A stretch of DNA of 64,000 nucleotides from Vermamoeba vermiformis. Its lineage: Eukaryota. The position numbers were made by a program, and so were the translations under genes. Shown here one piece after another: positions 16,402-59,522 of the stretch. A model generated the notes under the pieces. It was not told where the DNA came from, did no database searches, and was given only the letters and a program-made list of their open reading frames with translations. How positions within the stretch are numbered: the first letter of the stretch is position 1; each line of letters begins with the position of its first letter. Where the stretch lies: contig JBEWZL010000239.1 of assembly GCA_045837725.1 (NCBI GenBank), forward strand, positions 496,001 through 560,000. The letters are read 5' to 3'.

Positions 16402-19400
16402 TTACAAGATTCTAAACTCAGCGCGGCCCAAGACTTCATTGACTTTGGTCTTGTTGTCCATAACTTTCTTGCGCAGTTTGTCTTTCTTATTGGCCATGCG
16501 CGCCAAGTACTTGACCATCACCGACACGGTGCTCTTGCTGTTCATCTGGTCTTCAATGCAGCGCAAGTAGATCAGCAGACCCGTGTCAATGCGCGCTGTT
16601 TGTTGACTGTCTTCAATGTCCATCATCTTCGAGAAGAGCTTCAAGAACGGATCAAACTGCATGTAACTCAAGCGCGAGATGCCTTCAGTAAACACGGAGA
16701 AGAACAGCTTGGTCATCGCTTTGTCCTCCCAACACGCGTGCTGGGCAATGCGAACGATGGCACGAGGGTCAATGTCATCGCGGAGGAGTTTGTAGAGCAT
16801 CGTCTGATAGGAAAAGGTGTTAGAATATTGCGTGTGATAAATTACGAGTTTGACACGTGTCACAAAAAAAAAAAGTGTCAAATCGGATCCGTACCTTATT
16901 GAACAACTGTTCGGACTCCTCAGTGGACAAAGTGAGTGGCTTTTCAACGCCAACCAGACTAGGTGGCGGGGTGGTGCTGACCTTCTCTCCAGGCGCGCGA
17001 CACGAGCACACAATGGTCGCAATGATCTCGCCCATGTTGCCGAATCGCGTGGGTCCAGACATGCCTGAAATGATCGTGCGAGGTGCAAAGACCGATTCTT
17101 TAGCCTGTTCTGGCTTTTGAGAGGATGGCGGGCTCGGTGAAAATTCGCCACGTTGCAAGTACAAATCGAACAACTTCGAGATGACCTTTCGGCGCAACAA
17201 GAACTTGCGCTCAGGCATGCCGAGCTTGGCAAACTCGGCAATAACTTGCAAGAATTGATCGGCTGGCTTGCGGTAAGTGAGCTTGAACGAGGTCAACATG
17301 TACTCGATGAACCAGATCACGTAAGAAGCTGGTGGCTTTGACGGGAACTTCTCGCTGATCTGTTTGCGAGTCTGTTTGTAGAGCTTGCGCTCAGAGGGCG
17401 CGAGACTCAACAGCGCATTGACGATGAGTTCGGCATTGGCTGATCGAATGAGCACTGAAGGCAAGTTGACGAGCAGTTCTTGCAACTCATCGGGGTTAGC
17501 CATCAACTTGGTCAAGAGCCACTTGCAAGCCTATTAAGAAGATTCACGATTAGACTTGACACTGTGACAGGTGTCATTAGGCGTGTGGTACTTACATCGT
17601 GATTGAGTTGGTAGAACTTCTTGAGACGATTGATCCACAACGGGAACATGGTCTTCTCGCGTGCTCGTGCGTAAACATCAGTGACAAATCGTGTGGCGAA
17701 TTGAATCATCGCAAATTCAGCGTCGTATTCGCTCTTCGTGAACGGCTTGATCTTCCTCTTGCTCTTTTGCAGCGATTCTTCACGTGACTTTTCAGAACTT
17801 GAGCCCTTGTCCTTCTCGCCCGAGTTATTGTTGTTAGTGTTGTTATTGCTCTCTGGCTTCTTTTCGTCTTTCTCGTCCTTTTTAACATCGTCTTTTTTAA
17901 CGTCGTCCTTCTTGTCATCCTTCTTATCGTCTTTTTTGTCATCCTTTTTGTCGTCTTTCTTTTCATCTTCCTTCCTTGGCGACACGACGTCAGGAGCACC
18001 AGGCTTAGGACCGTCATCTTTCTTATCGTCCTTCTTGTCGTCTTTTTTCTTGTTCTTATCGTCCTTTTTCTTGTCATCTTTTTCTTCCTTCTTGATGACC
18101 TTGACCTTGTCTTCAATCTTCTTGGCTGCGCTCTTGTTGTGAGAGTTGCGGGCTCGGTCAGCGTCGAGGAGATGTTCCGCTTGTGTGATCTCTAGCGGCA
18201 ACTCGTGAGGCTTGGGACTGTACAAATTGACCAAGTTCCAAATGAAGTTGAAGTAGTCTGCATTGAACACGTGTTTCTCCATAATAAACGATCGGTTCTC
18301 GCTCCAAATGTCATTCAAAATTGGCTCAGGGACTTCAGCCTTTTGACCATTCTTCGCGTACTGCAGCAACATCTCGTAAAATCTCGATCGGGACTCGTCA
18401 TTGGCATTGTTGCTATTCACATTGTTGTTGTTCAAAGCCAACTCTTTATCGCCTTCCTTCTCCTCCTTGATGGCCGTCAAATGTTCTTCGTTCTTTGACG
18501 CCACATTGGTATTGTTCTCAGTTGAAACACCTTCATTCTTCATGGCCTCAACGAGTGTGCCGTGAGAGCTAGACTTGCGCAGCTTGGCTTTGCTGGCCTT
18601 GGTCACGGGCACGTTCTCAACAGACTGACTTCGCTTCATGCCTCCTTCGCCCAACAGCAATTCCTTGGGTTGCTTACGCTCGTAAATCAAAATGTAAGCG
18701 TTATTGCTGCGTGTTCTGATTCGCTTTTCACCAGTGGGCTTGTTGTCAGGACCAAGGATCGGGATCTGATCTTCACCTCCGAAACATTCTTCAGGGATCT
18801 GGTTCACGTCGAACGGCAAGACAGTCGTGTCGTTGAACTCGAACCATCGAACTTCTTGTCTGCCTTGGATGGGCATGCGTTCTTTGATGAACGAATAGTA
18901 GTGACCAAAGTCCGTGCTGCCAGTGTGCACGACAACACCTGAGAGTTCGTACTCGTAGTACTCAGTCGGGTGCAACAGATTCACTTCGAGGCTGTCTTGG
19001 GATGTAGCGCCCTTGAGCAGCTCTTTCTTCTCGAGGCCTTCTTTGGTGTAGGGCTCAAGATTGATCGTCATCGGGAAGACGAAGCTCGTGTTCAATTTCT
19101 CGTATCTCATCTTCTCGTAGTCGAATTCGAAGCGCTTCAAGTGCAAGGTCAAGATAGGTGGCAAGTTCTTGACGACACATCGCTTCAACGTGTCAACCGG
19201 CTTTTGACATGTCTCGCAGAAGTACTTGTTGTCACCGGTCAACATTTCTCCTTCGACGAACAGTTCAAAGGACTCTTGCAAGTTCTTCTTGTCCTTCACT
19301 TCAACTCCGATTGTGTAGAACGGCTCGTCAGTCTCTCTTCGGTGACCACATTCAGGGATCAGTTGGTTGCAAAGAGCACCGCCGAAGACGTCCTTGAGAG

Positions 19401-27194: not shown

Positions 27195-28752
27195 ATGGCG
27201 GATTTGTCCTTGATCGAGGATTTACTTCACGACGCTGCTGACTCCCAGTATAAGAGGCTTAAAGACGGGAAAATACTCTCTTTGGCACTTGCAAGTCAAT
27301 TTTTTAAGGATGGCGTCATTACGCTGTCCGGAGTTTCTTATCTGTTCGAGAAACACGTGTTGCGATCCATTCCAGATGGTAAGCAGCGCTTAAAATATAT
27401 ATAATTTATATACTGACACGGACGCAGGTAAGCTCATTAACCTACTCCAAACTCCAGAACTTGAACGAGTCTGTAAGCTTTGTACTCGGGCTGGATCTCG
27501 CGCGGTTGTTCCTTCTGAAGCACTTGCTGCAATTATTGCTGCTAAAGTCACGCACAAAGAGCTTCCTCGAGTCACAAATGGCACGGACATTGAAAGCTAC
27601 AGCAACAAATACAACAATGCCAATTTGAACGAGTCAGATCGGATCGCACGCGTGTTCAACGACGAATTGACGTGCGTAGTATGCATGGACACATTAGAAG
27701 ATGCTGTGGAGAGCAGCTGCTGCAAAACAATGTGCTGTTTGAAGTGCTCAGACAAATGTCCTAGCTGTCCTATTTGTCGCAAACAAAGCATCAAGTGGAC
27801 GGCAAACGAGCCTATTCGCCGCATTGTCGGCAAGAAACCAGCAAAGTGCCCGCACAAAGATTGCTCGCAGTGGTCAACAGCAGCTGAAATCAACGTTCAC
27901 AAAGAGAAGTGCGAGCATAGAATTGTGAGCTGTACGAACAGAGGATGCAACGAGAGGATGAAATATTTAGACCTCAAGACACATACTACAATGAAGTGCA
28001 AGTTCAGATTCGAGACGTGCGATGTGTGCAAGATTCAGATGCCGCATGGTGTTAATCACAATCCACGCAGATGCATCTGGAACTGTGGCCAAATACTGTG
28101 TAACACTACAGCCAAAGATCACAATGACACGTGCACTTACCGCCCTGTGCGATGTAAGAACCGTGATTGCCGCGAAGAAGTGCAAAAACGATTGCTTCAA
28201 GATCACTTGCAGAACACCTGTCCGTACCGGGTAGTTCAGTGCCCCAACAACAAGTGCACAGTTCGAATGTTCGCGTGCACAATCTCAAAACACACTGACA
28301 TTTGTCCTGAAGCACGAGTGAACTGCAGATATTGCAATATACCGTGCTACAGAAAGAACTTAGACAGGCACGAGGGCAGTTGCAGAAAAAGGCCAGTGTA
28401 CCAATGCGATCACTGTTCAGAATGGTATTGGGAAGGCGACAACCATCCCAATGTTTGCCCCGAGCGCTACGTCAATTGCTCACACTTCAAATGCCCGCAG
28501 ACAGTGAAAGCTAAAAACCTCGCCCACCATGAGGAGCTGTGTCACTTCCGCAAGGTCAGCTGCACAAACCGAGGATGTGACAAAGTTGTCTTCTTACACC
28601 AACTTCATGTCCACGAAACCCAACAATGTCCGCACCGTTACATTGAATGCGACAACTGTGGCAAAGAGATGCGTGCGTGGAAAATGAAGGGTCATCGTTG
28701 TTACGACAGTTCGTCCGATAGTAGCTCCAATAGCTCTAACAGCTACTACTAA
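27195..28752 (+). CDS. LOTUS/OST-HTH-like + RING + tandem TRAF-type zinc-finger protein (paralog 1)
   Basis: ELTCVVCMDTLEDAVESSCCKTMCCLKC...CPICR RING, then many C-x4-C...H-x3-C TRAF fingers; one intron in the N-terminal domain. Confidence 0.8.
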
Positions 28753-31640: not shown

Positions 31641-33418
31641 ATGTCTTGGCCAAGAAACGGTAAGCCAAAGGACAGCACGCTGATGCAGCTGCGCAGCCTT
31701 TAAAATTTTCTCTATAATATATTGATTTAATGATTTATTAAATAAATAAGTTATAATATCAAAATCTATTTGTCCAAGGTTCGATTAATGGAAATTAAAG
31801 AAAATTAAATTTGGATCTGATCCCTGAATTTCATTTTTAGAAACCAACGAAGAAAAAGAGCTCAGGTTCGTTCCGTACACGATAATCGATGGAGCTGCGG
31901 AACTAGCCATTGATATGCAAAGAGATTGCAACAGAATGGATCATTTCTTGCCACTGTACTTTGTCGTTCTTGAGGAGCTATGTAGCAGACAAGGAAGCGA
32001 TATAGACTTGTCCGAGATCCCCAAACTATTTGAAGAAAAATATGGCTACAAGCTGCAGTTAGATTGTGAGTTAGAAAATTTCGTTCTTTTTCCGAATCCA
32101 ACTAATTTTCCGTTTAGCCAAACTCTGCCATGTTCTGCGGCAAGGTGCATTCCACAAAATATGCAGTCTAAACTCTCACGGTCCTCCTCGCAAGATCTCT
32201 CCATCGCCAACGTTCTTCCGTATCGTTCGTCTTCAGTACCAACAGGAGGACGTTATTATCAAGAGACTAAATGAAGCCGAACAAAGAGTCAAAGCTGCCG
32301 ATGAAAAGGTAGTATTGTTAACAAAGTCGTTAGAAGCACGACCTGAAGACAAACTGACCAAAATGTTGAGCGACGAGTTGACGTGTGTCGTTTGTTTGGA
32401 CACGCTGAACGAGGCCGTGGAAAGTGAGTGCTGCAAAACATTGTGCTGCCAAACCTGCTCGACAAGCCTACCCGTGTGCCCTATTTGTCGACAAAAAGAC
32501 GCGCACTGGCGCGGGAATGAAGCCATCCGAAGGTTGGTCGGCAAAATACCTGTCAAATGTGACACCAAAGAGTGCACCGCGTGGTCTACCAGAGCAGAGA
32601 TCAAACTACACAAAGACCACTGTGAATACGTCGAGATTAAATGCTCCAACAAAGAGTGCACGTTCACTGCCAAACGCAAGGACTTCAAACCACACATTGA
32701 CACGTGTCAACACGCCATGGTCAACTGCACGCACTGCCACCAACAGATAATGAAGAAGAACGTCGCGCCTCACGAGTCCATGTGTGCAGAGCGAACCATA
32801 CGGTGCACAGTGTTTGGCTGCAGTGTCACGGTGAAGGCGAAAGACATGCCACAACATCACGAGGTCTGTGACTTTGTTGCACTCAGATGCACGAACGACG
32901 GCTGCACCTTCACGGTACAACGTCAGAACATGAAGGATCATCTGTCCAAGTGCCCAGAAGGCGTACTCAAGTGTACCTATTGCACTTACAAGTTCAAGCG
33001 CAAAACCGTCCATTCCCACGAGCGCGGCTGTTCGGTGAACTACGTCCAGTGTTGGTGCGGCGATTACATCAGAAAGCGCGATATTAGAGCCCACAGAGAT
33101 CACTGTCCTCAGGCTCCTATTGCGTGCAGAAACGATAGATGTCCAGAACGCATCATACCTCGTCATATGGACACTCACGTGAACAATCAATGTGACTGGA
33201 CTTACATGCCGTGTCGTTGGAACGATTGCCCAGATCAGTTCACGCGCAAGTTCATTCAACAACACGAAAGTAACTGTTGGTACCGCGATGTCTCGTGTCG
33301 TCATTGTGGCTTGGAGACCTCGCGCAATGCACTCGACGACCACTTGAGAGCGTGCAAACGACGACGAAGATACTCACCTTATTTACCTCAATGTGCTCCA
33401 TGCGCATCCATGTATTAA
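31641..33418 (+). CDS. LOTUS/OST-HTH-like + RING + TRAF zinc fingers (paralog 3)
   Basis: MSWPRN first exon; IDLSEIPKLFEEKYGYKLQLD; ELTCVVCLDTLNEAVESECCKTLCCQTC...CPICR; long TRAF-finger array. Confidence 0.8.
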
Positions 33419-40102: not shown

Positions 40103-43100
40103 ATGTCGATCTTTCAAGAGTTCTTTTCCGGCTTCGCGAAGTCTAAGAAGACTCCGAAAGCGCAGAATTTAGAATGGATGCAGACGTTGGAAAAGAAGAC
40201 CAACACAATGCTACTGGTCATCTCCTCCATCTTAGACAAGAATGACCGAAACCACCAAATTCAACAATTAAAGCGATTATACACATTAATCACAGATTTT
40301 TCTCCTATGTTACAGCAAGAATTGCAAGTGGTAAGACACTCCCCATTTTTTTTTCTCTGGATTAAATTATTTAATTCAATTTTTCCGATCAATATCGTTG
40401 GATCGCGATTGTTTATGAGCCCGACGATTCGATTTTATATCTCACACTCAATTGATTTTGTAGAACGGCTTGGATAGTGCGGAATGCGAAGGAGAAATGA
40501 ATATAGTTCGAAATACACTTCTGGAATTGTGGATGAAGCTAAGCATGATTATAGAAAAGATTGAAAATCCACAAGATACCGTGCAATTTCTTAATGTTTT
40601 ATTTCGGTAAGCCCAAGACCTTATTAAGTTCCATTTATTTGAAAAAAAATCGTCTTTTCGCTTTATTACAAAAACCGTTAATTTTCAATTGAAAATATTA
40701 ATGCAAATAATTAATCAAATTAATAACTACATTAAGCAAATCGGAAAAACGAATAATTCTAATTACGAGATCGAGTTTCTCCTTGTTACGGGAGCTACAT
40801 TCCTAAAAAGGAAATTAAAATCTAATTGCTTTAATTCAGCATTATGATACGCAACGAGTTTGATCCACGGTACTTAAACTTCGATTTGAATGGAAATATA
40901 CGCTGCACAAATGACGTACTGGACTACTACAAAAGATACCAGTATTTAATGCACAAATTGTATGACTATATAACCGCCAAGTTAGCGGACGTAATTCCTA
41001 CCAGTGTAGAGGGCCTAGCACCGCGTAATACGGTAATTATTAACAACGTTAAATTTCGCTCGACATTTCGAATTTTAATTTATTGCGCCCATTAATGCAT
41101 TGACACTAATTTTTAACTATAATAGGGCTTGTTCACGACTTACGCGAGGATATTAGTGGCATTTTATTTTAGAATGCCCAGTGTACAGACTGACATTTTG
41201 AGGGCCACAGCGGTGCCACCAAACATTGACCTGTGGGACTTTACTAAGATCAGACAAGAGCTCGCAGACGAAGAAAACAAACCAGCGCCACCACCGCCCC
41301 CCGTGCCCAAGAAGAAGGGTGGACTCGTGCCTTCAGTCAATCAGGTGCGTGCCACTAGTCCTAAACCACCACCGCGCAGCACGACTGCACGCCCTTCACC
41401 ACCCCCGCCTCCGATCAAACAGTCAACAGTTGTCAGCAACACCAATGTTAGCCCGACTGTGCCGCTGCAAGTCAATGGCACTAGTCCCACCAAACCACCT
41501 GTCAGAGCAGCTACGGACGCAGATTCACCAACCGCAGCACGATCAAAATCAGCAGCGAACATAATGACGCACGCACGGTCACATTCAGTCAGTGGCACGT
41601 CATCAACGAGCGGCAGTCCATCGAAGACTGTTGTACCGTTGTTAAATCTTCCGCGAGCTCAGCTCACGACAGTGCCTGAAGGTAACGATGAATCAAAGGA
41701 AATTCCATTGACACCAACGACAGCGCAACGACAACCTGATTTGGGTAATGGTCCCATGCCCAAATTAAATGTCAACGGCAGTGCATACAACGGCAAGAAT
41801 AACAACAACAACAATAATAACAATAACAACGGCATTCGACATTCGATTGAAGTTGAGCGCGGCAGTTACAAATCACCGCCCATTGATGTCGAGTCACTGC
41901 GGATCAGTGCGGAGATGCCACTCAGTCCACGAACAGCTGAAAAGTTGATGCGCGAAAAAGAAGACAAAATGAAAGAAGAACGCGCTGAAAAGTCACGAGC
42001 ACAAATGGGCATGTTGTTCCCTGGATTTGTTCAATGGCCGCTCGTTCATCGTCTGCTCTTTGATTCTGACCCCAAAATGCAGAAGATATTTTAGTACGTC
42101 ACTGTGAATTAAAATGGTCTAAGTGCCTATCTAACCACTTCGAACAGTACTAAAGAACCAAACACCGGTTGGCTCGGATGGTTCCGCAACGGCGAGTCAG
42201 CGCTGTTCGTGATATTTATTCGCGAGTTTGTGCGCTACGTGTACGTCAAGATCGTGAAGCACTTGCACATGAAGGTGCGTGATCCGGAACACCCGCCTGT
42301 CACTGGTCGACGGAACTCGCTGTCTGCACATCACGGCTCCGGTCACGTGCGAAGTAAATCGACGGGCGACATTGACAGCGACAAAGCGAAGAACGACGCA
42401 GACAACGACGAGTTGATGCCTAATGCCTCGGACTTTGACTGGTCTGTCGTCACTGGATTCAACGCACTCGGAGGCGCGTACATGTATCACATGAGGCGAC
42501 GAAGGCGCTATCCCAAATCAGTTGTTGACTGCAGCTGTGCTTTGATAAGGTCAGTATAAGCACGAAGACATCGAGGTTATATTGATAATGATATGTGGGC
42601 GTTGATTTCATACTTGCAAACGATCTGCCAGTCTCAAAATTAACCGTTAATTAACGGTTTCATTTTTTATTATAGGTGCAATCCTAGTCTTATCAACTAC
42701 TTTATTAAATGTGTATATGAAAAAACAAGCATGTTCAGTCAACAAGCTGTAATCGGTACGTGCACTCAAGATCCGGATCTGGCTCGCATGAACTAACAAT
42801 TAAAATATTATAGACACTCTAAATAGAATAGAAGAGTGGTTTAGCGCTTTCGATAAGTCTCATTTGACATTGCCAAAGTAAGATCTGCTCGATTCAATTT
42901 AAGCGCGCAATTACTAAATTCGATTGTATTAGTGACTTTGACCTTGATTATTACATCATGGGTCTAGATTTGATATTGTCGACCGATCACCATCAATTGA
43001 CTGCTAAAGTGCTCTCATTAACATACCACTACGCTCATCTGTTTACTGGACAGCAGAGAAAGGTGATATTCGGCGACTTCTTCATTAAGAAACACTTCTT

Positions 43101-47234: not shown

Positions 47235-49200
47235 TTACTTTTTGTGATAGATCTTAAAGTTCTCGCGGTCTTTGTATTTGTCTTTTGTTCTGCGCCACTC
47301 TTCAAACGGAAAATCAGGCGCAATTTCAATTTCTTCTCGCGGTGAGATCCACTCCAAAAACTGCCAGACAAAAAAGCCTAGCACGACTATCATACAAAAC
47401 AACTTGCCAGCCCACGGTCCACAGCCGTAATGACGTCGCAGCCTTTCGAGCAGCGGCCACGGCTCTTCACGAATAATTCTGTCGTACACTTTTTCAGTCC
47501 GTTCAGCCACGTTGTTCCAATCGTAACAATGTTTCACTTCTTCGTGCATCTTCCACGGATCTACTGTCGGCAGACGCCTGACGGCCTCACGGATTTTATC
47601 GATCAGATCTGATTAAGAGAAGGTGAGATCAAGTCAATGACACGTGTCAAAATCATACCTCCAGCGTCAGGCTCAGCGAGCACAATGTAAGAAGGCGGCA
47701 GTACTTCAGGCACACCGCCGACACTGGTGCTCACGACCATCAAGCCACAACACGCTGCTTCAACAATGGCGATACAAAATGCCTCGGTCAGCGAACAGTT
47801 CAAAAAGATGTCACCGCGGACCAGCACCTGTTACATGTTAATAACACTGATGCAATAGAGAAATTGACACTTACATTGCGAACTTCGTGGTGTGGCACAT
47901 TGCCGAGCAGTGTCACACGATCGTGCAGCTGATGTTTCTCGCGCATGTCTTCGAGATCAACACGCTTGTTGCCATCACCGCCTGCAGAACCGATCAGTCA
48001 TCTATTGTAATCATATTGTATTCACCCTTGTACGTACCAATCAGAAAGTCAACATTGGGATAGAGTTCACAGATTTCAGGGATGACTTCAACTAACAGGT
48101 CCATGCCTTTACGGTACACTAAGCGACTCACGACCACAATAGTAACTAACGGAAGGTTAATACTAATGGCTGATAAATATCATAGTGCGTACTTCTATTG
48201 GGTGTGCGTTGTGACGGGTCAGGCACAAATCGTGGTCCGTCAAGTGCATTGGGAATGACTGACACATCGAGTGGATCCAATGAGGCACGCAGCACTGTGT
48301 TCTCTTTGCTGTGATTGGTCACGTGTTAATTACCAAATATGGTACCGGACCAATGAATGACACGTACCCCGTGTGCGAGACACAAATCGCGTGACTGACG
48401 TCGGAAAGTGAGAACTTGAGCACTTTGTTCATGTGAATGCTGCTCGCGTCTGCAAAGCCAAACACAGAGTGGTCGGTGAAACACGTGCGGTAGCCCATTG
48501 TGCGCGCGATGAACAGACCTTCCAGCGCAATGCACGAGAAGCCCTAAAGAGATGTCAGTCCCGTTCATTGATGACTTGTGAGGAGGTGCCGGGTAGTACC
48601 TGATGGCAGTGCACGATCTCTATTTGTTCGCGTATTAATATTTTTCTGACGAGTGGAAACAGCATGCTCAACACAATGGTCGGAAATGAACTTTGATTGT
48701 AGAACTCTTTTTGCGGCAAATAATACACTTTGAGGCCGTTCGTTAAATATCGGACACCTTTTCTATTGTTATAGCTGTGCGTAACAATGATGACCTGTAT
48801 TAGTGTTAAATATCAGTTATTGAGCCAAATTAACGATTTGAAATTGAAAAGTTTGCTAATTCGTTATCAAATAAATTTATTTTTATTTTTTAAATAGATT
48901 GTAATTAATTGTTGATGGTCATAACTATTGTAAGGCGATATTAAGCCGTGTAAAATTATTGAATTATTTTTTTCGACAGATCACGAAATTGTCGGTTTTC
49001 GGACTTACCTTGTTACCCCGAGCGAGTAAGCATTGTGATAGTTGATATAAATGTTGCTCTACACCTCCGACATTCGGATAAAAGAAGTCCGAGAGCATAG
49101 CAATGCGATAGCCTTTTTTTTGAGCGGCATCCGTCAAGTTACTCTGTTGTCGTATAATCTCCGAAATATCAACACTGGCATGACGAGAGTGTGTTAGCAT
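47235..49200 (-). CDS. PIGA: Phosphatidylinositol N-acetylglucosaminyltransferase subunit A
   Basis: [84 protein letters not shown]. Confidence 0.97.
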
Positions 49201-49348
49201 TTCATTTCAATTCAATAATTAATGCTAAATTCTGCTGCACACGTTGACAAAAAAATCGAATAAAATTGATAACAAAATTTGACCTTTTAGTTCCACTTTG
49301 AATCGAGTGTAAGAGCACAATAGAGGCATTGATATATATTAGCACAAT

Positions 49349-49994
49349 ATGGCATCAGAATTATTGAACCCAAACCCGACCGTTTACAAGGTCGCTGAAA
49401 TTAAGCGCAACGAAAACACCGAAATGGACGAGAATATTGTGGACGGTTTTGATACGTTAGAAATATACGGTAATTAATTATAATATTATAATATTCAGTA
49501 TTTCATGTCATATTAATAATTTCGCAGATCTCATTAGAAAAATTAATGATCCCGAACACCCGTTGACTTTAGAGCAGCTCAATGTCACCAAGCACGAGCT
49601 AATTTCATTAGACAATGACCGAAGTTATATTAGAGTGTTTTTCACACCGACAATCCCTCACTGCTCGATGGCGACTTTGATCGGACTGTGCATCCGCGTC
49701 AAGCTGCTCAGATCATTGCCTGAACGATTCAAAGTCGATATTATGGTCACTCCTGGCACACACGCCTCTGAAGAAGCAGGTAGGACTCTTTGGAAGTTTT
49801 CCACGTGGAACTTGACTGATCTGATCCTGTTTAGTTAATAAGCAATTAAACGATAAAGAACGTGTTGCTGCTGCTTTAGAAAATGGCCATTTAATCCGTA
49901 AGTATAATTGCAATGCCAATCTACGGATCCAACCTAATTTCTAATATTTTGATATTCAGAGGTTGTTAACAACTGCATTGCCCACACTGATTAA
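49349..49994 (+). CDS. CIAO2B: Cytosolic Fe-S assembly factor MIP18/FAM96B
   Basis: [73 protein letters not shown]. Confidence 0.95.
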
Positions 49995-50177
49995 TGCTCC
50001 ACTGTATAAATAACAATAGTCACATCAATCGAGTGAAGAACAGCACTCATGTAAATAAAAGCAACTTGTAACGACATCCGCGAACAAAAAAAACTAAGAG
50101 GTTTTACTATATTACAAGTGCGTCAAGGATTTGTACAAAAATATTTAAAGCGTGATATATGCCACTACAATCACGCT

Positions 50178-52451
50178 CTAAATCGCGTCGTTGTCCTGCT
50201 GAATGGTCCAGACGACGAGTGCCTTGAGGTTGGTGAGCGTGTATTTGAGGGCCTTGGTCCAATTCTCTTCTGAACTGTACTGCAGCTTGATCGACACATT
50301 CTCCAGCTTGTCGCCCTCGACCCTAATAATACATCGTTAGTCAACTACGGAGCAATACAACGCGTGTAATGTGTCGTACTTGTAGGGCAGTCGAAAGTTC
50401 TTGTCGCGTGTTTGAATGTGCGCAGCGAGTTCCGTGAGACATTCTAAGAACGCCACCATGCCATTGTCAAAGCGGCGGTACCAGAACAGCCGTACCAGAC
50501 TCAGATCCCGTTCACCAAACCTGTGCTCGAGGTTAGTCATGAGATTTTGGACCAATCAGGCACGAGCAACAAGTATTTAAACTTGCCCTGGTAATTTGAC
50601 CGTTTTTTTTTCAAATATAAATAAGTGAACAACACTCGCTGTTCATTTTAATCAATTTCAACGTGGTCTTTCAATCGACTTACAATTCATAGCTCGTGTC
50701 ACTGCCTGGCTTCTCGAATTTAGTTTGACTTCCAAACGGCAAAATTTTGTATCTGTAAGCACTGTTAGCATCACACAACCACCGCTTTCTTGCACATACC
50801 CTTTGAATTCGTAATTGAGAAATTCAGCGATTGACACGAGTGCTTGTGCTGCAAATCCCCAGCCAGCATTGATTTCGGACCACTCAACTGGGTGACATTG
50901 TTAGTGTCAGTGTGCAACCGCGTGCGTGTCATGTACGTACCAGGTGTGGAAGGCAATCGACCCATGCGCAGGCCATTGATTGTGCCGAAGTGGCCCTCGT
51001 ACCAAATATGAAACGCGTCCGTTAATATGTGCTCACGACGTCGCTGCTCGAGCTGTAGCAGTGCTGATTTTGTGCTGTTCGATGCATCGTTAGTACGCGC
51101 GTGTCAAATGTCACAACATGACACGTTGACACTTACACTTGTCGCACGCTGTGTCGCTCTTCAACAAACAGTTCTTGATCTAGTCGCAGCTTGCCGTGCT
51201 CGCACCAATATTTTTCTTCGAGTTCTTGGTACGTGGAATGTTCTCGCCTCAATTTGTTCAATTTCTTTTTCGTCTTTTCTCGTTGTTTCAAAATCTCCTC
51301 GAGCTCTTTCTTCAGCTCTTTTTCTTGATGTTTCAGCTGTGCCACTTCTTCGCTAAAGTCACAATCAGCTGCTTGCTTCTCTTCTGCCTCTAATTTCAAC
51401 AAAAACTCTTGGTACGCTGCAACTTCTTGCTTGGCGTCAACAATGGATTTGTTAATGTCGTCCAGTCTGAATCGTGCGCACTCGACACACAACGGAAAAT
51501 CAACAGCAATCTCAGCCGTAGCGAGATCTAACAGCTTGGATACCTGGTCAAAGGTGAGTCAACAGATATTCTCAAGTCTCATTTTACCAATGGTTCAATT
51601 GATACCGCATCACTGTCAGGCACCAGCACGTCGTGGCCATTAGCATTAGACTCCATTGCTTGCACGTCAATGCTCGCATTCACTTTCTTGCTGCGACCAG
51701 GCAGACCAATCCTCCGCTCTGTGCACACGTTAGTTTGACGGATTTGATGCTCGTTACATTGACGTCAACTTACTTGTCTTCGTCTTCACTGTGCTATAAC
51801 CTGCAGCGGCAATATCGAGTGTTAATTTTACCTTGCAATGAAAGTCGCTAGTGCTACACGTACCTTTGTCACTTTTGGTCTTAGAAGTGTCGTTGATAAT
51901 CACAAAATCATTCGAAGGACTACCCCCACGTGTCGCAGGCAGCAGTCTCGGCGAGGTCATGGCTGGACTGTGCGAACCTGGTGTAGGGGTTGGCGAGGAC
52001 AGCACGCTCTTGGAGAACACTTGCTTCTGTAGCGAGTGTCAAAGTCAATCAAGGAATAATCTTAATTTAGAGCAGAATGATGCTTTTATATTGCCCGTAC
52101 CTGTGCATCGTCCTTATAAACAGCGTCTGATGGAACCACCTCAAAATTGTTGCTAACTTTTTGTAAAGCAACCTCCAGATCAATATCTAAATAAATATAT
52201 TATTAATGCGATTGTTTAATAATTAAGCATTTAATGTTGCAATGACGAATATAATCATTCACTAATATGTTCCTAATAATTACTTCGATTTTTCCAAATT
52301 TTCTGACACAATGCAATAATCAAATTACACTTAATAATGAGCATTAGTTAGTACCTTTATCTTTTTCTAACTCTTCAAAATTAATTTCTGTCAACGACGG
52401 ATGCAGGTCGAGTTTCTTTCCACACCGTTGACAAACGAATATTCTATCCAT
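50178..52451 (-). CDS. ATG6: Beclin-1/Atg6/Vps30
   Basis: [20 protein letters not shown]; coiled coil; [60 protein letters not shown]. Confidence 0.95.
50544..50662 (+). repeat. 119-bp dispersed duplicate (copy A) inside an ATG6 intron
   Basis: 116 of 119 nt identical to 58611-58729 by direct comparison. Confidence 0.95.
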
Positions 52452-52609
52452 TTAGTCTCTATTTGACGATGCTACTAATATCTATAATATATACATGAAT
52501 AAATACAAAGATGTCGTGCAGTCAACAATAAACAAGGTGGAATGAAACCAGCCCTGATTTTGCAAGAGACATTCGCTGTCAATCAAACAAAACTTCTAGA
52601 AGCATGTAA

Positions 52610-53120
52610 ATGGAGCTGAATACCACAGAAGAGGAGTTTATAAGGTCCAACGGACATTCAGGACGATTGGCTCATCAGGTTTACTTGGATCTAAAGCTAA
52701 ATAAGAAATGGAAAGCGACAACGCTTAAAAAAATTGGAGAAATTTGTTTCGTTGAAGGAAATACTGCCGAGGACTTGGTACGTTAAGCAATCAGCCTTAT
52801 ATTGCTGTTGATTTATTTTTAAATCTTCACGAATTATCAGATCCCAAAACTAACTTAGCTACTTAATCTCCAGGAGCTCACAAAACACATAATTCCCGTA
52901 GATAATAGTACGCCTATATCTCCTAAAATGTAATTATCAATAAGTGTCGTTTCATAATTCTGACAAGTTAATTTAAAGTATCAGCGATCTGTTCGCGCAA
53001 TTCGCTCCACTCAAGCCTGAACCGCAAAGAGAGCTGCATCTTTCATTAGCATTTATATCAAATGATTCGACTATTGTCTATTATCGGCTACAGCCTCATT
53101 TAGTGCCGCCCAAAGAATGA
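52610..53120 (+). CDS. TSEN15: tRNA-splicing endonuclease subunit Sen15 (3 exons)
   Basis: Spliced: LAHQVYLDLKLNKKW...HIIPV...LSLAFISNDSTIVYYRLQPHLVPPKE*, matching the Sen15 motifs VYLDL..W and DSTIVYY. Confidence 0.8.
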
Positions 53121-53188
53121 GCGATATAATTTTTGTAATTTGTTGTGGATCAACCAAACACAGCTTGTATTATAGTATAAAATTGAAT

Positions 53189-53861
53189 ATGTTGAAGCCT
53201 AAAGTATTGCCTCAATTGTTGCAACAAGCCAACACGAATGGTGTGAAAGCTACAAGGTACGACAAGCAGAGCGGATCGCGACTTAATCAATCAAAATAAT
53301 ATTGAATTTATTATTAATTATAATTATTAGTTTATTGACCACCGATGGTTCTCTTCTCGCAAGCTCTGGCGATAACGGCAAAGTCATATCCGCTATTTTT
53401 GCTAATATTTGGACTTCTTACGAAAAATCGCAAGTCGGAAACTTGGAATATTTATTGAGCGAATGCGAGGTAATTTTATTACCATTTTCTGGCGATTATT
53501 ATCATTTATCCATGATTGTTTTATGTGGTTCCTATTTTGCGTGATATCGATCAACAAGAAGTTGTATCAGTACTGTGTATTTACATAAATGCCTCTAATA
53601 ATTAATTTTGTCTTTAGGAAGGAAAGATCTGCGTAACTAAAGTAACCAATCAATTTTTATTATGTTTATACGGCGATTTGACTTCAGAATTTGGCATGTT
53701 GAAACTAAAGGTATTTACAGTAACACTTATACTTATGTAGCAGTACAATATTATACACACTAGGACACCGCGGTGTCAAGCAAGTACTGATGAAACTTTT
53801 TTGACAGGCCAAGCTATTAAAAGAATACCTTGAAGAGCCATTAAAGCAAATCATGGACTAA
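53189..53861 (+). CDS. LAMTOR2: Ragulator subunit LAMTOR2 (roadblock fold)
   Basis: MLKPKVLPQLLQQANTNGV...LLTTDGSLLASSG...AIFANIWTSYEK...ECEEGKICVT...EFGMLKLK...EYLEEPLKQI. Confidence 0.93.
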
Positions 53862-53939
53862 ACACCTCTATATATTCGTTGTACCTGTTTTATAAACCAA
53901 TTTGTGATAGATCTGTGTTCGATTATTTTGCGCAAAAAT

Positions 53940-54565
53940 CTTTCAGACAATAAGGCCGTCGTCAGTTCCGCTCGCCTCGTTTTCATTCCTCTAACCACTT
54001 CATAACTCTCGACCACAAGAGGCACCCTCATCCGCCACGCCATGACGTAACGGTTGTCGATCTTGTTGTCCTCTCGCACGGCGGCGTTCGCTGCATCCTT
54101 GTGCTTGGTAAGCTCACTTTTCCTTTCAATACCTTTCTATAATTCCGAAATTTTGGTTTGGATGATGTTCAAATGCATAGTTCAACTGAATTACCAAGCG
54201 TGATTATCATTTCTTTCGCTCCTATCTGACCAATCCAAAATTTTAAAAAAATTCTAAAAATCCCTTCTTACATATCAGCAAGCCTCTTACTAATGTATGT
54301 TTATTTCTTGAAGGAATCGTATTTTTACGATGCTACCACATGAGCACCCGAGTCAAATCCCGTGAGGTAAATATCTTCTTATGAAACCCTATTGCACCCA
54401 AGCCTTGTGCCGATAATCCTCACATTTTCGGTCACACCGTTCAAGGTGCATATATTCTCTTATTTATTTCCATTTAATTTTGCAACCGCTGATCGTTCTT
54501 GCAGATCCAGCTTTGCCTGATCAAACGACTCTTGTGCAGTTATCTGAAGCTTTTCCAATAAACAG
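53940..54565 (+). ncRNA. Putative spliced non-coding snoRNA host transcript (5' end approximate)
   Basis: Plus-strand donors near 54107 (GTAAGC) and 54367 (GTAAAT), acceptors near 54313 and 54504, AATAAA at 54557-54562; only tiny ORFs in the exons. Confidence 0.6.
54157..54234 (+). ncRNA. Box C/D snoRNA, snR60/U80(SNORD80)-like, dual guide for LSU rRNA
   Basis: Box C ATGATGT 54162, D' CTGA 54186, C' GTGATTA 54200, D CTGA 54226, terminal stem ttttggtttgg/ccaatccaaaa. Guides GCATAGTTCA and TCTTTCGCTCCTAT are complementary to the conserved LSU rRNA segments UGAACUAUGC and AUAGG(G)GCGAAAGA. Confidence 0.88.
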
Positions 54566-54592
54566 TATTTTACTTCATTATCTGTACATGTC

Positions 54593-57500
54593 TTAGTCTT
54601 CCATCTTCTCTTCGGCGGCCGTTGGCTCTTCATCCCGCTTCTCCTGTTGCGGGGTCGAGCTTTCGACTAGAGACTCGTTAAGCGCATCTTCCTTGTCCTT
54701 AGGCTCCGCATTATTAACATTAACGTTATTGTTATTATTGTTGCCGTCACTCAAGGGTGTTGAAGGAGCAATACGCTTGGTCGGCGAGAGTTGCTTTGGA
54801 TCGCGGATGCGCTGCTCACGATTGAAGGCGCTGTTGAGAGCCGCATCGTCACGACGACCGAATACTGGTGTTTGTGTAGCAGAAGCAGAACCTCCTGTGC
54901 GAACTTGAGATAGTTCAGCTTCCCGCTTGGAGATCTGATCGAGCGCCTCTTTGTACTTGACGACTAATCGTTGAATAGACTTGTTCGTGCTCATAATAGG
55001 GAGCAAGTCTTTCAACAACTTCCTCTTATCGAGACCCTGTTAGAAAACGATTAGCACTGGCTCTAAACTTAAATCCTTAGGGCACGCACCAAAATTGTCG
55101 TGTTCCACTCGCCACTTTGTACTGGACGGGCACTGGTCTGGTGTGCGGGATAGACCCTGTAATGCGTTAGTATCAAGAATAATGTGCACCAGTAGATTGT
55201 CGTACTTGTGAATAGGTCCGCGCAGGTCGTGACACACCTCTTCTAGTCGCAGTGTGTTGCCGTCTTCAGACAACTTGCGCACGTAAGCTTTGAGCCACTC
55301 TTTGAACTCGCTGACCGAGTTGAGTGCAATAGCCGAGGCCATCATATTTTCAAGGTGAGCCAAGGTCTCAGCGGATTGGTCGCGCGAGTCAAGGTGCAAC
55401 ATTTCAGTCGGTAACATGCGCACTTTCTTCTGTGCCGCTACTTGTAATCGACTGAGCAAGCCACGAGGACTAATGCGATTGGCTTCGACAATTGAATTGA
55501 ACAGACTCGTTGTGAAGGACTTGTCGGCAATGCGGACCCAAGTCTTCATGGAGGAGTGGTACGTGAATGACTCGCCGCTGGACATGCTGACAATGCACTG
55601 ACCAGTCTCGCTGACTTGTGTGCTCTCAATGGTCACCGTGCCTGATAATAAAGACGCTACTGAGCCTGTCATTTCCAGTGCTTGCTGTTGAATGTTCCAA
55701 ATAGTCACGCTACAATCTGTGCAGATCGCCATCAAATGTGATGTCTGATTGACTTCCAAATACGCTGCTTGGCTGTTCAACATGATGCACGGTAGCAGCT
55801 GTGGTCAAAGTTAATATACGCACAAAATATACTCCAAGAACGTACCCTTCTGCCCGCAGGTGAAAATACGTAAAGCGAATTATCTCGGCAAGCTACTGCA
55901 GCAAAGTTCTTATTTCCCGCTGCGAGACTGGCCTTGCCCTTGATAACATCACGCCACCGTACGTTACTGACGTCCTTTTCTTCGCTGTTATTGCGACCAA
56001 CGACGTAACTGACAGCTGTCACCATCTCTTTTTCGTGCTCCGATGATGTGGCCTCGATGAAGGCGTCCATTGGTTGACCATTGTCGTTGAATACGAGGAG
56101 TTGTTTGACAATTGCGTCTTGTTCGACAGGAGCAGGAAGTGTCGGGCCAACAATGCGTGTCGCTGCTCGTTTGCCTGGAGGTGACTTCTCGCTCTCCTCG
56201 ACGCGCTTTGACTTGCCCGTCTTCGCTTTCTTCTTTGCTCTGTTCTCTTCCTCTTCTTCCTCAGCTGGACGCTTCCTCTTCTTTTCTTTTTTCTTCTCGG
56301 TTGTTTTGTCTCCCTCCCCTGCTTTGTCTTTATTTTCTTCCTCAGTGGGCTGTGCGGTGATATCAATTGAGCTAATTGTCACTGTCCCAGTCTCTTGTAC
56401 TGTGGTTGTGGTAGCTGCACTTGGTGTTGCTTCGGTTGGCTTTTGAACTGTTTCAGAAACAGATGTAGTGGTAACTTGAGTTGCGGAGGTTTGTGTCGTT
56501 GCATTGGTAGGCGGAGGTGACGACACTGTGGTTGGTTGAGAGAACTGCGCGGGCGCTGCGACCGCTCCTTGACCCAAAAACTGAGGAACGATTCTTCGTT
56601 TGCCGCTCGGTAATCGAGTCTCGGATTGAGGTCTATTTAATGGCGGCAGTGGCTGTGCTGGTTGTGCCGGAATAACAGCTTGCAGAGAATTCGATGAAGT
56701 CTGTAGCAAACCCTGACTGGATTCACGCTCGAGTGCCATTAAACTCGGATCTTCTAACAGAGTCTGCGAACTTGCTGCTTTCACTGAGTCGCCGTACTGT
56801 TTTCGCAACATCTCGTCTACTTCCATTTGGGACAAGGTTTCGCCCAATTCGTCTTTGTTGAACTGAATCATAGCTATCGTGCCGTCGGAGGAACAGGCCA
56901 ATAAGACGTAACCATCGGCAGTCCTAAATCGGATTAGACCGTGTAACAAGGTTGTATATATCTAATGCTTACCAGGCCAAGTCCAATACACTTTGAGTAA
57001 ATAAGTTTTTGAAAACAACGACAGGTCTGTACGCCTTCGTCAGCCAAATTGAAATTAAATAATCTTGACTGGCAACGGCACAGCAAAAGAATTGACCTTC
57101 ATCGTGCCTTCTAAATACTCGAGGGCTGAATTTCTAGTGCACAATAGTTAGCGAGATTGCAACGTCAATTGGTTACATACCGTGCAAGTAACGCTCAATG
57201 AGTGGCCAACAAAATCTTTATCTCCCTGCCATTTACCGCCTCTAGGAATAATAGGCGCGACAAATCTTCCTTTCTTGACACCACCCGCTGCAACAACGAA
57301 TTGTCCATCAGGTGACCAACTAAATAAAAGATAAGTAAAATATCGATAATTAATATAATAGAGCGCGTACGCAGGACGTTTGTAAAATGTGTTGTGTGGG
57401 GCTTTTCTGAACGGCTTTGTAATTCTGAAATCTTCTTTGTAATCGCTCATTCGCCAAACAATTGCCGATCGATCATCAGACTGCAGCATGATTAATTTTC

Positions 57501-58343
57501 GGTTATTTCGAGCGTTATATACATACTTGAGAGAACAAATATCGTCCGATAGGATCCCATGCAATTCCTTTAACAATACCATCGTGACCAGAAAGTTTCG
57601 CAAGAATGGCTGTAAATAGGTTAGTGCCTGTGCTTGATGTAACCGATCTATTTACGACTTACTACTCGTCATCACATTCCAAATAATTACTTTGTTATCT
57701 ACACCGCATGACGCTACTCGAGTGCCATCAGGAGACCAACAAAGGTCTGTTACGTCTGTTGTACTGGTTATAATCGATCCTTTCGTATATTTATGTTGTA
57801 AACTCACCAGCTTCATGACCGCGCATTACACATTTGACTCCCCAGTTCTCTACGTTCCTCTCCTTCACTCCGAATATCTGTCCTCCTCCTTGCGACTTCA
57901 TTTCCCAAATTATGATACTTTTGTCATCTGAAGCGCTTGCTAAATACATGCCAGATGGTGACCATCTCACGCAATTAACGGCTGCTATATGATTGGTCAT
58001 GGTGCATAGAAGTTGTGGCGAGGTATCAGAACGATCTATGACGCACGCCAAACTCCATATTTTAACTTTATTATCTATAAAATAATAAAATAATATTAGA
58101 ACTGATTTTCTTATTGAACAGCATTTTTAAAAAATTAATCTGCATTATTTTTAAAAATTATTTTGTGTTTTCTGAGCTACCAAACGTTACCTCCACCACC
58201 AGTGGCAAATCTCTTTCCAGAAGGGTGCGCATCTATACTCCAAATTGGATATCCTGCAAAGAATCAGTGTCACTGAAGTTGTCACATTTGGGCTTGATCT
58301 TACCATCGTGAGACACCCAGTCAGGTTTATCTGCCTTAACCAT
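54593..58343 (-). CDS. HIRA: Histone chaperone HIRA (WD40 + B motif + Hira domain)
   Basis: MVKADKPDWVSHD; HPSGKRFATGGGDNKVKIW; MTNHIAAVNCVRWSPSG; B-motif ETRLPSGKRRIVPQFL; C-terminal TLAHLENMMASA...WLKAYVRKLSEDG..RLEEVCHDLRGP. Confidence 0.95.
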
Positions 58344-58489
58344 TGTAAAGCGGAACTTATAGGAACGGTATGTTAGCCAACCGAAATCGAACTTCGAGAG
58401 CCACAAACAAAATAAAGATGCCAAAAATAAAAGCGCGGGCAGAAATAGGTGACCCCTGAAATTTCGCATGTCAGTACGAAACCGGAGTC

Positions 58490-58730
58490 ACTCCAATGAG
58501 CAGAGATCAATCAGCGACTTTAGTCTAATACTACCCGTATGCCTAAGGTACCGTTTCCCAGCCGTTTGTTCGATTCGTAAGGTTGTGTATCTTAAAATCC
58601 AGAAGACGAAATTTTGGACCAATCAGGAGCGAGCAATAAGTATTTAAACTTGCCCTGGTAATTTGACCGTTTTTTTTTCAAATATAAATAAGTGAACAAC
58701 ACTCGCTGTTCATTTTAATCAATTTCAACT
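58490..58730 (+). promoter_or_regulatory. Divergent HIRA / H2A.Z promoter region with CCAAT boxes and TATA-like elements
   Basis: CCAAT at 58493 and 58619; TATTTAAA at 58641 and TATAAATA at 58683; lies between the divergent start codons. Confidence 0.6.
58611..58729 (+). repeat. 119-bp dispersed duplicate (copy B) in the H2A.Z upstream region
   Basis: 116 of 119 nt identical to 50544-50662. Confidence 0.95.
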
Positions 58731-58946
58731 GTTGTTTTAACAACTACCCGTTACACTAAACTCTTTTAATCGTAAGTACATCTAGCTTCTGAACTTGGTT
58801 TGAGAGGGTCACGTACCTCCTACTTTGCTAAAACTACTGGTTGGCAAAGTAGCAGTGCGCTATTCTTCAACCAAGCTCCAAGCTCGCGGTGATCTTCGTC
58901 GCCGATACTCGCCTGACCTCATAGAACTAACTTGCTATGCTTACAG

Positions 58947-59522
58947 ATGTCTGACGAAGGTAAACAAAAGTCATCTAAGGGCAAGAAGGCCCCCGCTTCC
59001 GCTCTCTCTGGCGGTCGTCCTCAATCTCGTTCTCAAAGAGCCGGTCTTCAGGTATGTTGCCTCATCATTAGTAATTGACTTAAAATTTTTCAAAAAACGA
59101 AATAAATTGGTGCTGATATGTTTCTTTCGGGCTATTCTGTTCTCGGGACTTGCCATCCTCGAGTTGTTGCGGCAGATTACTGATTCGACTTTGTTTTACA
59201 GTTCCCTGTCGGTCGTATTCACCGCTTCTTGAAGGACCGCTCTCACGCTGGTGGTCGTGTCGGTGCTACCGCCGCCGTCTACAGCGCAGCTATCTTGGAA
59301 TACTTGACTGCCGAAGTTCTTGAGTTGGCTGGTAATGCCGCCAAGGATCTTAAGGTGCGTCGTATTACTCCTCGTCACTTGTTGTTGGCTATCCGACAAG
59401 ACGAAGAGTTGGATCAATTGGTAAAGGCTACCATCGCTGGAGGTGGTGTCATCCCCCACATCCACAAGTCGTTGGTCACCGGCAAGAAAGGAAAGAACGA
59501 GAAGCCTGGTAGCAACGAATAA
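58947..59522 (+). CDS. H2AZ: Histone variant H2A.Z (one coding intron plus a 5'-UTR intron)
   Basis: [20 protein letters not shown]...[43 protein letters not shown]...[25 protein letters not shown] (H2A.Z-diagnostic residues). Confidence 0.96.

Follow-up and report, generated by a model that had tools for sequence, protein, structure and literature searches.

An old copy of the H2A.Z core promoter inside an ATG6 intron of Vermamoeba vermiformis, probably evolving in concert with its source

Paralogues that are closer to each other than orthologues are, despite an older duplication, represent the criterion for concerted evolution, as used in PMC2720389. Most known cases concern gene families or long duplicates. 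The sequence pair described here lies in a stretch of 64,000 nucleotides (nt) of Vermamoeba vermiformis (GenBank assembly GCA_045837725.1, contig JBEWZL010000239.1, positions 496,001 to 560,000 of the forward strand), hereafter called the window. It consists of the core promoter of the histone variant gene H2A.Z, together with the beginning of its messenger RNA (mRNA) leader, and of a second copy of this segment inside an intron of the autophagy gene ATG6 (Beclin). The pair is similar to sequences under concerted evolution by interlocus gene conversion, since the window paralogues are identical at 118 of 122 positions, compared to 91 of 127 for the orthologous intron copies of the window and a relative, L001, with the duplication being older than the split of the two lineages. 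In contrast to most described cases, a 122-nt non-coding promoter fragment is here paired with a copy in the intron of another gene.

Templated insertions and the capture of genomic DNA at repaired double-strand breaks have been reviewed in PMC7407515. The intron copy resembles such captured DNA in being a short piece from the same chromosome, with its donor still present (58608-58729) and with no target-site duplication (TSD), terminal inverted repeat (TIR) or element features. Unlike a recent capture, the ATG6 copy is no private mutation but fixed, conserved and common to two diverged lineages. It also resembles intragenic and intronic antisense promoters, as a complete core promoter with its start site faces against the host gene from within an intron; unlike those known, its origin is traceable to a named housekeeping promoter, that of H2A.Z, and the antisense transcription is only putative. 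Introner-like elements and other intron-generating insertions form a further point of comparison. As with introner-like elements, the ATG6 intron is lineage-specific (absent in 11 distant homologues) and consists mostly of the inserted repeat, whereas it differs from them in having two copies and no family, with splice and branch sites outside the repeated segment. In the partly accessible texts returned by literature searches, neither an intronic duplicate of the H2A.Z promoter nor a comparable antisense promoter in ATG6 was described.

Repeat search and pairwise alignment revealed a direct repeat of 122 nt (50541-50662 and 58608-58729, spacing 8067 nt) with 97% identity, which is the sole long high-identity repeat pair within the window. 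The mismatches are limited to positions 50543, 50561, 50562 and 50570, and the final 92 nt are without any difference. With up to three mismatches allowed, a 19-mer and a 31-mer of the element were each found at exactly 2 sites in the window, with 0.08 and 0.00 sites expected from shuffles, respectively. A weak similarity (75%) between the T-run/TATA part and the inverted sequence of 40621-40652 was rejected as an AT-rich chance match, being absent from the search with up to three mismatches. An earlier note on this DNA had reported 116 matches over 119 nt for 50544-50662 against 58611-58729 in the same orientation, and this count was reproduced by alignment; likewise, every motif which it had listed (CCAATCA, TATTTAAA, a T9 run, TATAAATA and a hairpin) was found in 50541-50662 (Table 1). 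The CCAATCA and TATTTAAA motifs presumably represent the CCAAT and TATA boxes. Reading of the flanks and ends of both copies revealed no TSD or TIR, in agreement with the same note. Beyond the right end of the repeat, a weak likeness continues for a few nt (CAAC followed by GTGGT, TGTTGT or TGTGT in the three sequences), and there are no matching bases at the left end; the event is too old to judge junction microhomology.

The structure was also recovered in unitigs of the DNA run X2, where record 1 covers 50000-50600, record 2 covers 50571-50662 (92 nt), record 3 covers 50633-54192, record 6 covers 54170-58667 and record 8 starts from 58700. Their break points are exactly those predicted for a two-copy repeat with k=31 (last mismatch 50570/58637, repeat ends 50662/58729). 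Both junctions of the intron copy are located inside unitigs, at depths of 312 and 340, and the 92-nt unitig common to both copies has a depth of 429, i.e., approximately 1.3 times that of the flanks, although unitig depth is not a copy number. In the run X7 (other organism label, depth of ~2.5), one contig stops at 50680, before the element, and another is unbroken across the H2A.Z copy (58581-58761); this depth is too low to tell whether its intron is filled.

The nature of the repeated segment is evident from the copy at 58608-58729, which precedes a histone gene. The top PDB matches of the encoded protein were all H2A.Z at ~170 bits, compared to ~113 bits for canonical H2A. RNA reads from the runs X21 and X23 (167 and 571 reads in total; species label same as that of the window, strain 95-99% alike in most reads) fit the window from 58707, with up to 14 loose letters ahead of this position, and are then spliced to 58947. 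In total, 14-16 strain-specific leader letters precede the splice joint at 58746/58748 to 58947, and a strand-switch joint from 58695 to 58947 (opposite strands) was present as well. The start of the H2A.Z mRNA is approximately at 58693-58707, at or in the hairpin and 23-37 nt before the repeat end, with no sharp start in the read-start table. Since the RNA 5' end falls inside the repeat and is spliced to the exon with the H2A.Z ATG, the repeat comprises the H2A.Z core promoter and the start of the leader, as the earlier note had proposed. A transcript 5' end inside the element, as expected of an RNA polymerase II core promoter, was observed for the H2A.Z copy only. Both RNA libraries look unstranded, with equal first-mate counts on the two strands over H2A.Z. 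At each of the listed sites (e.g., 50211, 50238, 50244, 50271, 58974, 59027 and 59240), all reads of the RNA strain disagree with the window, and this strain is clearly distinct from the assembled one.

The Beclin/ATG6 protein is encoded by the minus strand of 50178-51558 (Pfam APG6 BARA and APG6_N; PF04111 and PF17675). The intron 50521-50683 splits the BARA-domain coding sequence between ...TSYEL and FGERDLS..., and it must be spliced out, since the flanking exons are in frame and conserved in both the window organism and L001. In X21 and X23, no joint 50521/50683 appeared above the listing threshold at an ATG6 depth of 0.5 or less, which is too shallow to judge intron removal. The element is placed between the donor, from which it is 21 nt off, and the branch site, with the acceptor 20 nt outside the repeat. 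Its orientation antisense to ATG6 and the intactness of the splice signals (GTAAGT, CTAAC and CAG), both claimed previously, hold on sequence reading. Removal of 119 nt indeed leaves an intron of 44 nt, whereas calling this the normal size is only partly justified: the other ATG6 introns that were inspected are ~47-58 nt long, and RNA-supported introns nearby are ~148-184 nt long. Given the latter, the 163-nt intron is no size outlier. Between ATG6 and HIRA, RNA-supported introns are located at 52186-52355 (168 nt, minus strand, CT..AC) and 53467-53616 (148 nt, plus strand, GT..AG).

Relatives were sought by scanning metagenome contigs with a 60-amino acid (aa) query of the intron-adjacent ATG6 exon, 15 residues of which read into the next intron. 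The single close relative among the resulting 80 loci was L001, a metagenome contig collinear with the window at 47264-52765 with 77% identity. At the same ATG6 site it contains an intron of 155 nt (GTAAGT...ACAG), in which the element begins 21 nt past GTAAGT, exactly as in the window. Hence, the search for an empty 44-nt intron, suggested by the earlier note, ended with a filled one in the only close relative. Codon positions 1 and 2 of ATG6 are 93-95% identical between the window and L001, in comparison to 67% (207/309) at position 3, which corresponds to ~0.4 substitutions per synonymous site by our own Jukes-Cantor estimate; in three other ATG6 introns, which contain indels, the identity is 47-62%. 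Since the insertion point is the same in both organisms, 21 nt after the donor, the insertion predates their split, and the recent templated insertion favored by the earlier note is contradicted. For the comparison of the intron site, 12 of the 80 loci had both flanking exon peptides placed (11 distant homologues besides L001, with one spurious locus left out). The reading frame is continuous, with no intron at this site, in all 11 more distant homologues (L002, L005, L015, L048-L051, L054, L055, L057 and L058), so the intron is lineage-specific. Some of these ATG6 homologues have 27-63 nt of extra coding sequence there.

Conservation between the two intron copies is unevenly distributed. The conserved block listed in Table 1 has a binomial P of ~3e-8 against 65% third-codon-position identity, while the rest of the element is identical at 34 of 67 positions, with an 8-nt deletion and a 5-nt insertion. 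L001 keeps the CCAAT, TATTT.AAC, T-run, TATAAATA, hairpin and leader blocks, and the spacers vary by indels; such retention of motif blocks between free spacers is the conservation pattern of a promoter. The spacers that differ between the species are identical within the window. Since the paralogues are much closer than the orthologues (118/122 versus 91/127), spacers included, although the duplication predates the split, the pair has the signature of concerted evolution. Moreover, the 97% identity is no measure of age, as neutral decay of an old insertion would not have left the 57/60 block, and homogenization by gene conversion would explain the within-window identity better than youth.

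Altogether, we consider it the best explanation, with a probability of about 0.6, that the ATG6 intron carries an ancient paralogue of the H2A.Z core promoter, which evolves in concert with its source by gene conversion. We infer, rather than observe, the gene conversion, the direction of copying and any promoter activity of the intron copy. The duplicate would have arisen before the window organism and L001 separated, with capture of H2A.Z promoter DNA in the intron as the simplest origin. After the split, the intron copy and the H2A.Z promoter, being 8 kb apart and in the same orientation, would have been repeatedly homogenized by ectopic gene conversion, which would leave the copies within a genome almost identical, including the spacers, and only the functional promoter blocks conserved between species. 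Selection acting on the promoter of H2A.Z and on the 5'-terminal hairpin, and possibly on the intron copy as well, would be transmitted to the latter by conversion, regardless of any use of the intron copy itself. ATG6 splicing would be unaffected, as the element has the donor on one side and the branch site on the other. Renewed templating of the old intron copy would have the same effect as gene conversion. The survival of a ~120-nt passenger for so long in a gene with other introns of ~50 nt hints at retention by selection, short of proof.

The hairpin deserves separate mention. The 60-nt block contains three substitutions between the window and L001, and two of them are the partners of the loop-closing hairpin pair, changed from A-U to G-C. 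By our own count, the probability of two out of three substitutions among 60 sites falling on one of the six pairs is ~0.01, or ~0.003 with complementarity required. In a shuffle control with three sequences, which is a weak test, 158 of 500 shuffles did as well. Single-strand folds of both copies on both strands were unremarkable, with z-scores from -1.0 to -2.3. Part of the RNA reads have C instead of A at 58712 (5/16 in X21 and 19/33 in X23), and a similar number of reads have loose letters before 58707 with the same stem, an inverted loop and G opposite 58712. These variant reads could stem from a second allele, in which another pair has changed in a compensatory manner, or from an artefact, namely snap-back during complementary DNA synthesis at a 5'-terminal hairpin.

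As for transcription from the intron, the copy would most likely fire at some level, since it retains all the recognizable elements of the H2A.Z core promoter, among them the start site. A plausible antisense transcript would start on the plus strand at ~50626 (the equivalent of the H2A.Z 5' end is ~50626-50628) and run over the ATG6 exon 50684-50752 and beyond. A stronger version, which we regard as doubtful, would make the intron copy a working and selectively retained antisense promoter under the factors of H2A.Z, kept in step by gene conversion, so that antisense RNA would be produced over ATG6 whenever H2A.Z is expressed, thereby coupling the output of an autophagy gene to the chromatin or cell-cycle state. 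In a still bolder variant, the lineage-specific intron itself might have been born by capture of the promoter fragment, in line with the 11 distant homologues without it, the alternative being entry into an existing short intron.

Several points weigh against concerted evolution of the two copies or against activity of the intron copy. The close relatives amount to one (L001), and the comparison uses both window copies and the L001 intron copy. A homology tract as short as 122 nt is expected to support gene conversion only poorly. The depth of the shared unitig is 1.3 times that of the flanks, instead of the 2 times of a clean two-copy repeat, and X2 is possibly the sample behind the window assembly and hence not independent. 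The compensatory pair in the hairpin is supported by three sequences only, with the above-mentioned share of shuffles performing equally. The ATG6 exon next to the putative antisense start has an ordinary third-position conservation (15/23 versus 207/309 overall), which means no extra constraint. Finally, the RNA depth over ATG6 (50311-50932) is 0.0-0.5 per direction, in unstranded libraries of a divergent strain, and is uninformative on transcription from the intron copy.

An explanation without gene conversion would have both copies independently functional, with all 122 nt under strong purifying selection in the window lineage and the L001 copy partly relaxed. It is in agreement with the cross-species conservation of the core block in the intron copy itself and with the retention of all promoter motifs in L001. 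We find it unlikely, as it needs a spacer of 62 nt to be frozen in both window paralogues, while the L001 spacer took the 8-nt and 5-nt indels and many substitutions. Promoter spacers are rarely so constrained.

Less probable again is a recent one-off templated insertion of H2A.Z promoter DNA, such as in break repair, into a pre-existing 44-nt intron, where the copy would be young and neutral and for this reason 97% identical. L001 has the element at the identical position despite heavily diverged synonymous sites and introns; it is very unlikely that the same nucleotide was hit by insertions twice independently, and an old neutral insertion is incompatible with the 57/60 block. All this stands against the observations that a recent insertion would accommodate, namely the high identity between the copies, the lack of TSD and TIR, the splice signals outside the insert with 44 nt left over, and the weak likeness for a few nt beyond the right end. 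Overall, the earlier interpretation is right on what was copied and wrong on when.

That a small dispersed mobile element, such as a miniature inverted-repeat transposable element, a solo long terminal repeat (LTR) or an introner-like element, is present at both places by chance, an alternative also mentioned in the earlier note, we regard as very improbable. The segment is compact, AT-rich and promoter-like, as LTRs are, it is located in an intron, and the 11 more distant homologues without the intron are what an intron-creating element would leave. On the other hand, there are only two copies in 64 kb, the shared unitig is 1.3 times rather than tens of times as deep as its flanks, and among the X2 loose ends listed none is at a repeat border. 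Moreover, TSD and TIR are absent, the splice sites are outside the repeat instead of being supplied by it, and one of the copies functions as a promoter, the mRNA start of which has been mapped. Searching for the conserved block with a degenerate 38-letter pattern gave 0 matches in a prokaryotic contig collection and 0 in a viral one, which, as non-eukaryotic collections, carry little weight.

An equally improbable alternative is a gene for an intron-encoded small RNA, similar to small nucleolar RNA (snoRNA), on the ATG6 sense strand, with its second copy upstream of HIRA. Neither copy had an Rfam match at E up to 10 in 49500-59500, although the same scan found a C/D snoRNA at 54153-54238, and the fold z-scores are unremarkable. 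The intronic position, in sense for the minus strand, the conserved hairpin with its compensatory change and a CTGA near one end would be consistent with such a gene; yet there is no C box, the CTGA reads TTGA in L001, the motif blocks between indel-rich spacers represent a promoter-like conservation, and, according to the RNA reads, it is the H2A.Z leader that the second copy contains on its plus strand.

An assembly artefact, i.e., a collapsed or misplaced repeat, which the earlier note had likewise left as an alternative, is practically negligible: a short-read graph alone cannot tell which of the two entries into the shared 92-nt unitig belongs to which of the two exits, but full-depth unitigs connect the element with the ATG6 exon sequence on either side, the independent assembly of the relative has the same structure, and the other phasing would break ATG6 and H2A.Z alike.

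Table 1. Coordinates of the two promoter copies, their motifs and the surrounding genes in the 64,000-nt window
Feature	Position	Strand	Evidence or remarks
ATG6 exon downstream of the intron	50385-50520	-	Pfam APG6 BARA, E 1.4e-10; 43/45 aa identical in L001
ATG6/Beclin intron, 163 nt, phase 2	50521-50683	-	Donor GTAAGT 50683-50678, branch CTAAC 50536-50532, acceptor CAG 50523-50521
Intronic copy of the H2A.Z promoter and leader segment	50541-50662	+ (antisense to ATG6)	Alignment, unitigs, L001
CCAATCA	50552-50558	+	Read from sequence
TATTTAAA	50574-50581	+	Read from sequence
T9 run	50603-50611	+	Read from sequence
Conserved block: T-run, TATAAATA, hairpin, leader start	50603-50662	+	57/60 identical to L001, no indel
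TATAAATA	50616-50623	+	Read from sequence
Hairpin/palindrome TGAACA-ACACTCGC-TGTTCA (N8 loop)	50626-50645	+	Intron copy, read from sequence
ATG6 exon upstream of the intron	50684-50752	-	23/23 aa identical in L001
C/D-box snoRNA, snR60/Z15 family	54153-54238	+	Rfam, 55.1 bits versus gathering score of 41
HIRA/HIR1 histone chaperone gene	55040-58343	-	Pfam Hira, E 1e-42; CAF1B/HIR1 beta-propeller match below the curated cut-off; ATG 58343 predicted from open reading frame
Source-type copy, HIRA/H2A.Z intergenic	58608-58729	+	CCAAT box, two TATA-like boxes, T9, hairpin, first 23-37 nt of the H2A.Z mRNA leader
Hairpin at the H2A.Z mRNA 5' end	58693-58712	+	RNA reads; sequence
H2A.Z 5'-untranslated region intron (GTAAGT...AG), abutting the ATG at 58947	58763-58946	+	Sequence and RNA joints 58746/58748 to 58947
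H2A.Z coding region with one coding intron of ~150 nt	58947-59522	+	Pfam Histone, Histone_H2A_C; joint 59048 to 59199, GT..AG, 24 and 174 reads

HIRA/HIR1 and H2A.Z are divergent neighbors with a common intergenic region of ~600 nt, and the repeated segment could serve the HIRA direction too. The HIRA domain family was confirmed by a Protein Atlas search. At the snoRNA locus several X2 unitigs break, loose ends occur (54163, 54229) and the depth per bin reaches 491 versus ~300-340; judging from these breaks, loose ends and raised depth, the snoRNA may be repeated, as a whole or in part, elsewhere in the genome. Further repeats within the window include an 85-nt direct repeat (27653-27737 and 32364-32448, 75% identity, 4.7 kb apart), which seems to belong to the coding regions of two paralogous genes for cysteine-rich (RING-like) proteins. 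Imperfect 12/24-nt periodic repeats, rich in TCGTC/TTTTT, are located at 17864-18088 (eight of the nine listed copies of family D1), where the opposite strand probably encodes a low-complexity stretch rich in lysine and aspartate.

A promoter fragment of only 122 nt has thus apparently been kept inside an intron of another gene over ~0.4 substitutions per synonymous site and is still almost identical to its source, which would make the locus a compact case from nature in which concerted evolution concerns regulatory DNA and not genes. H2A.Z itself has a candidate regulatory element in the conserved hairpin at the very start of its mRNA, which shows one compensatory change. With a silent intron copy, the locus would be an ordinary old micro-duplication. 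If the copy fires, it would represent a traceable case of a new antisense transcription unit born by promoter duplication, which ties a histone-variant promoter to an autophagy gene.

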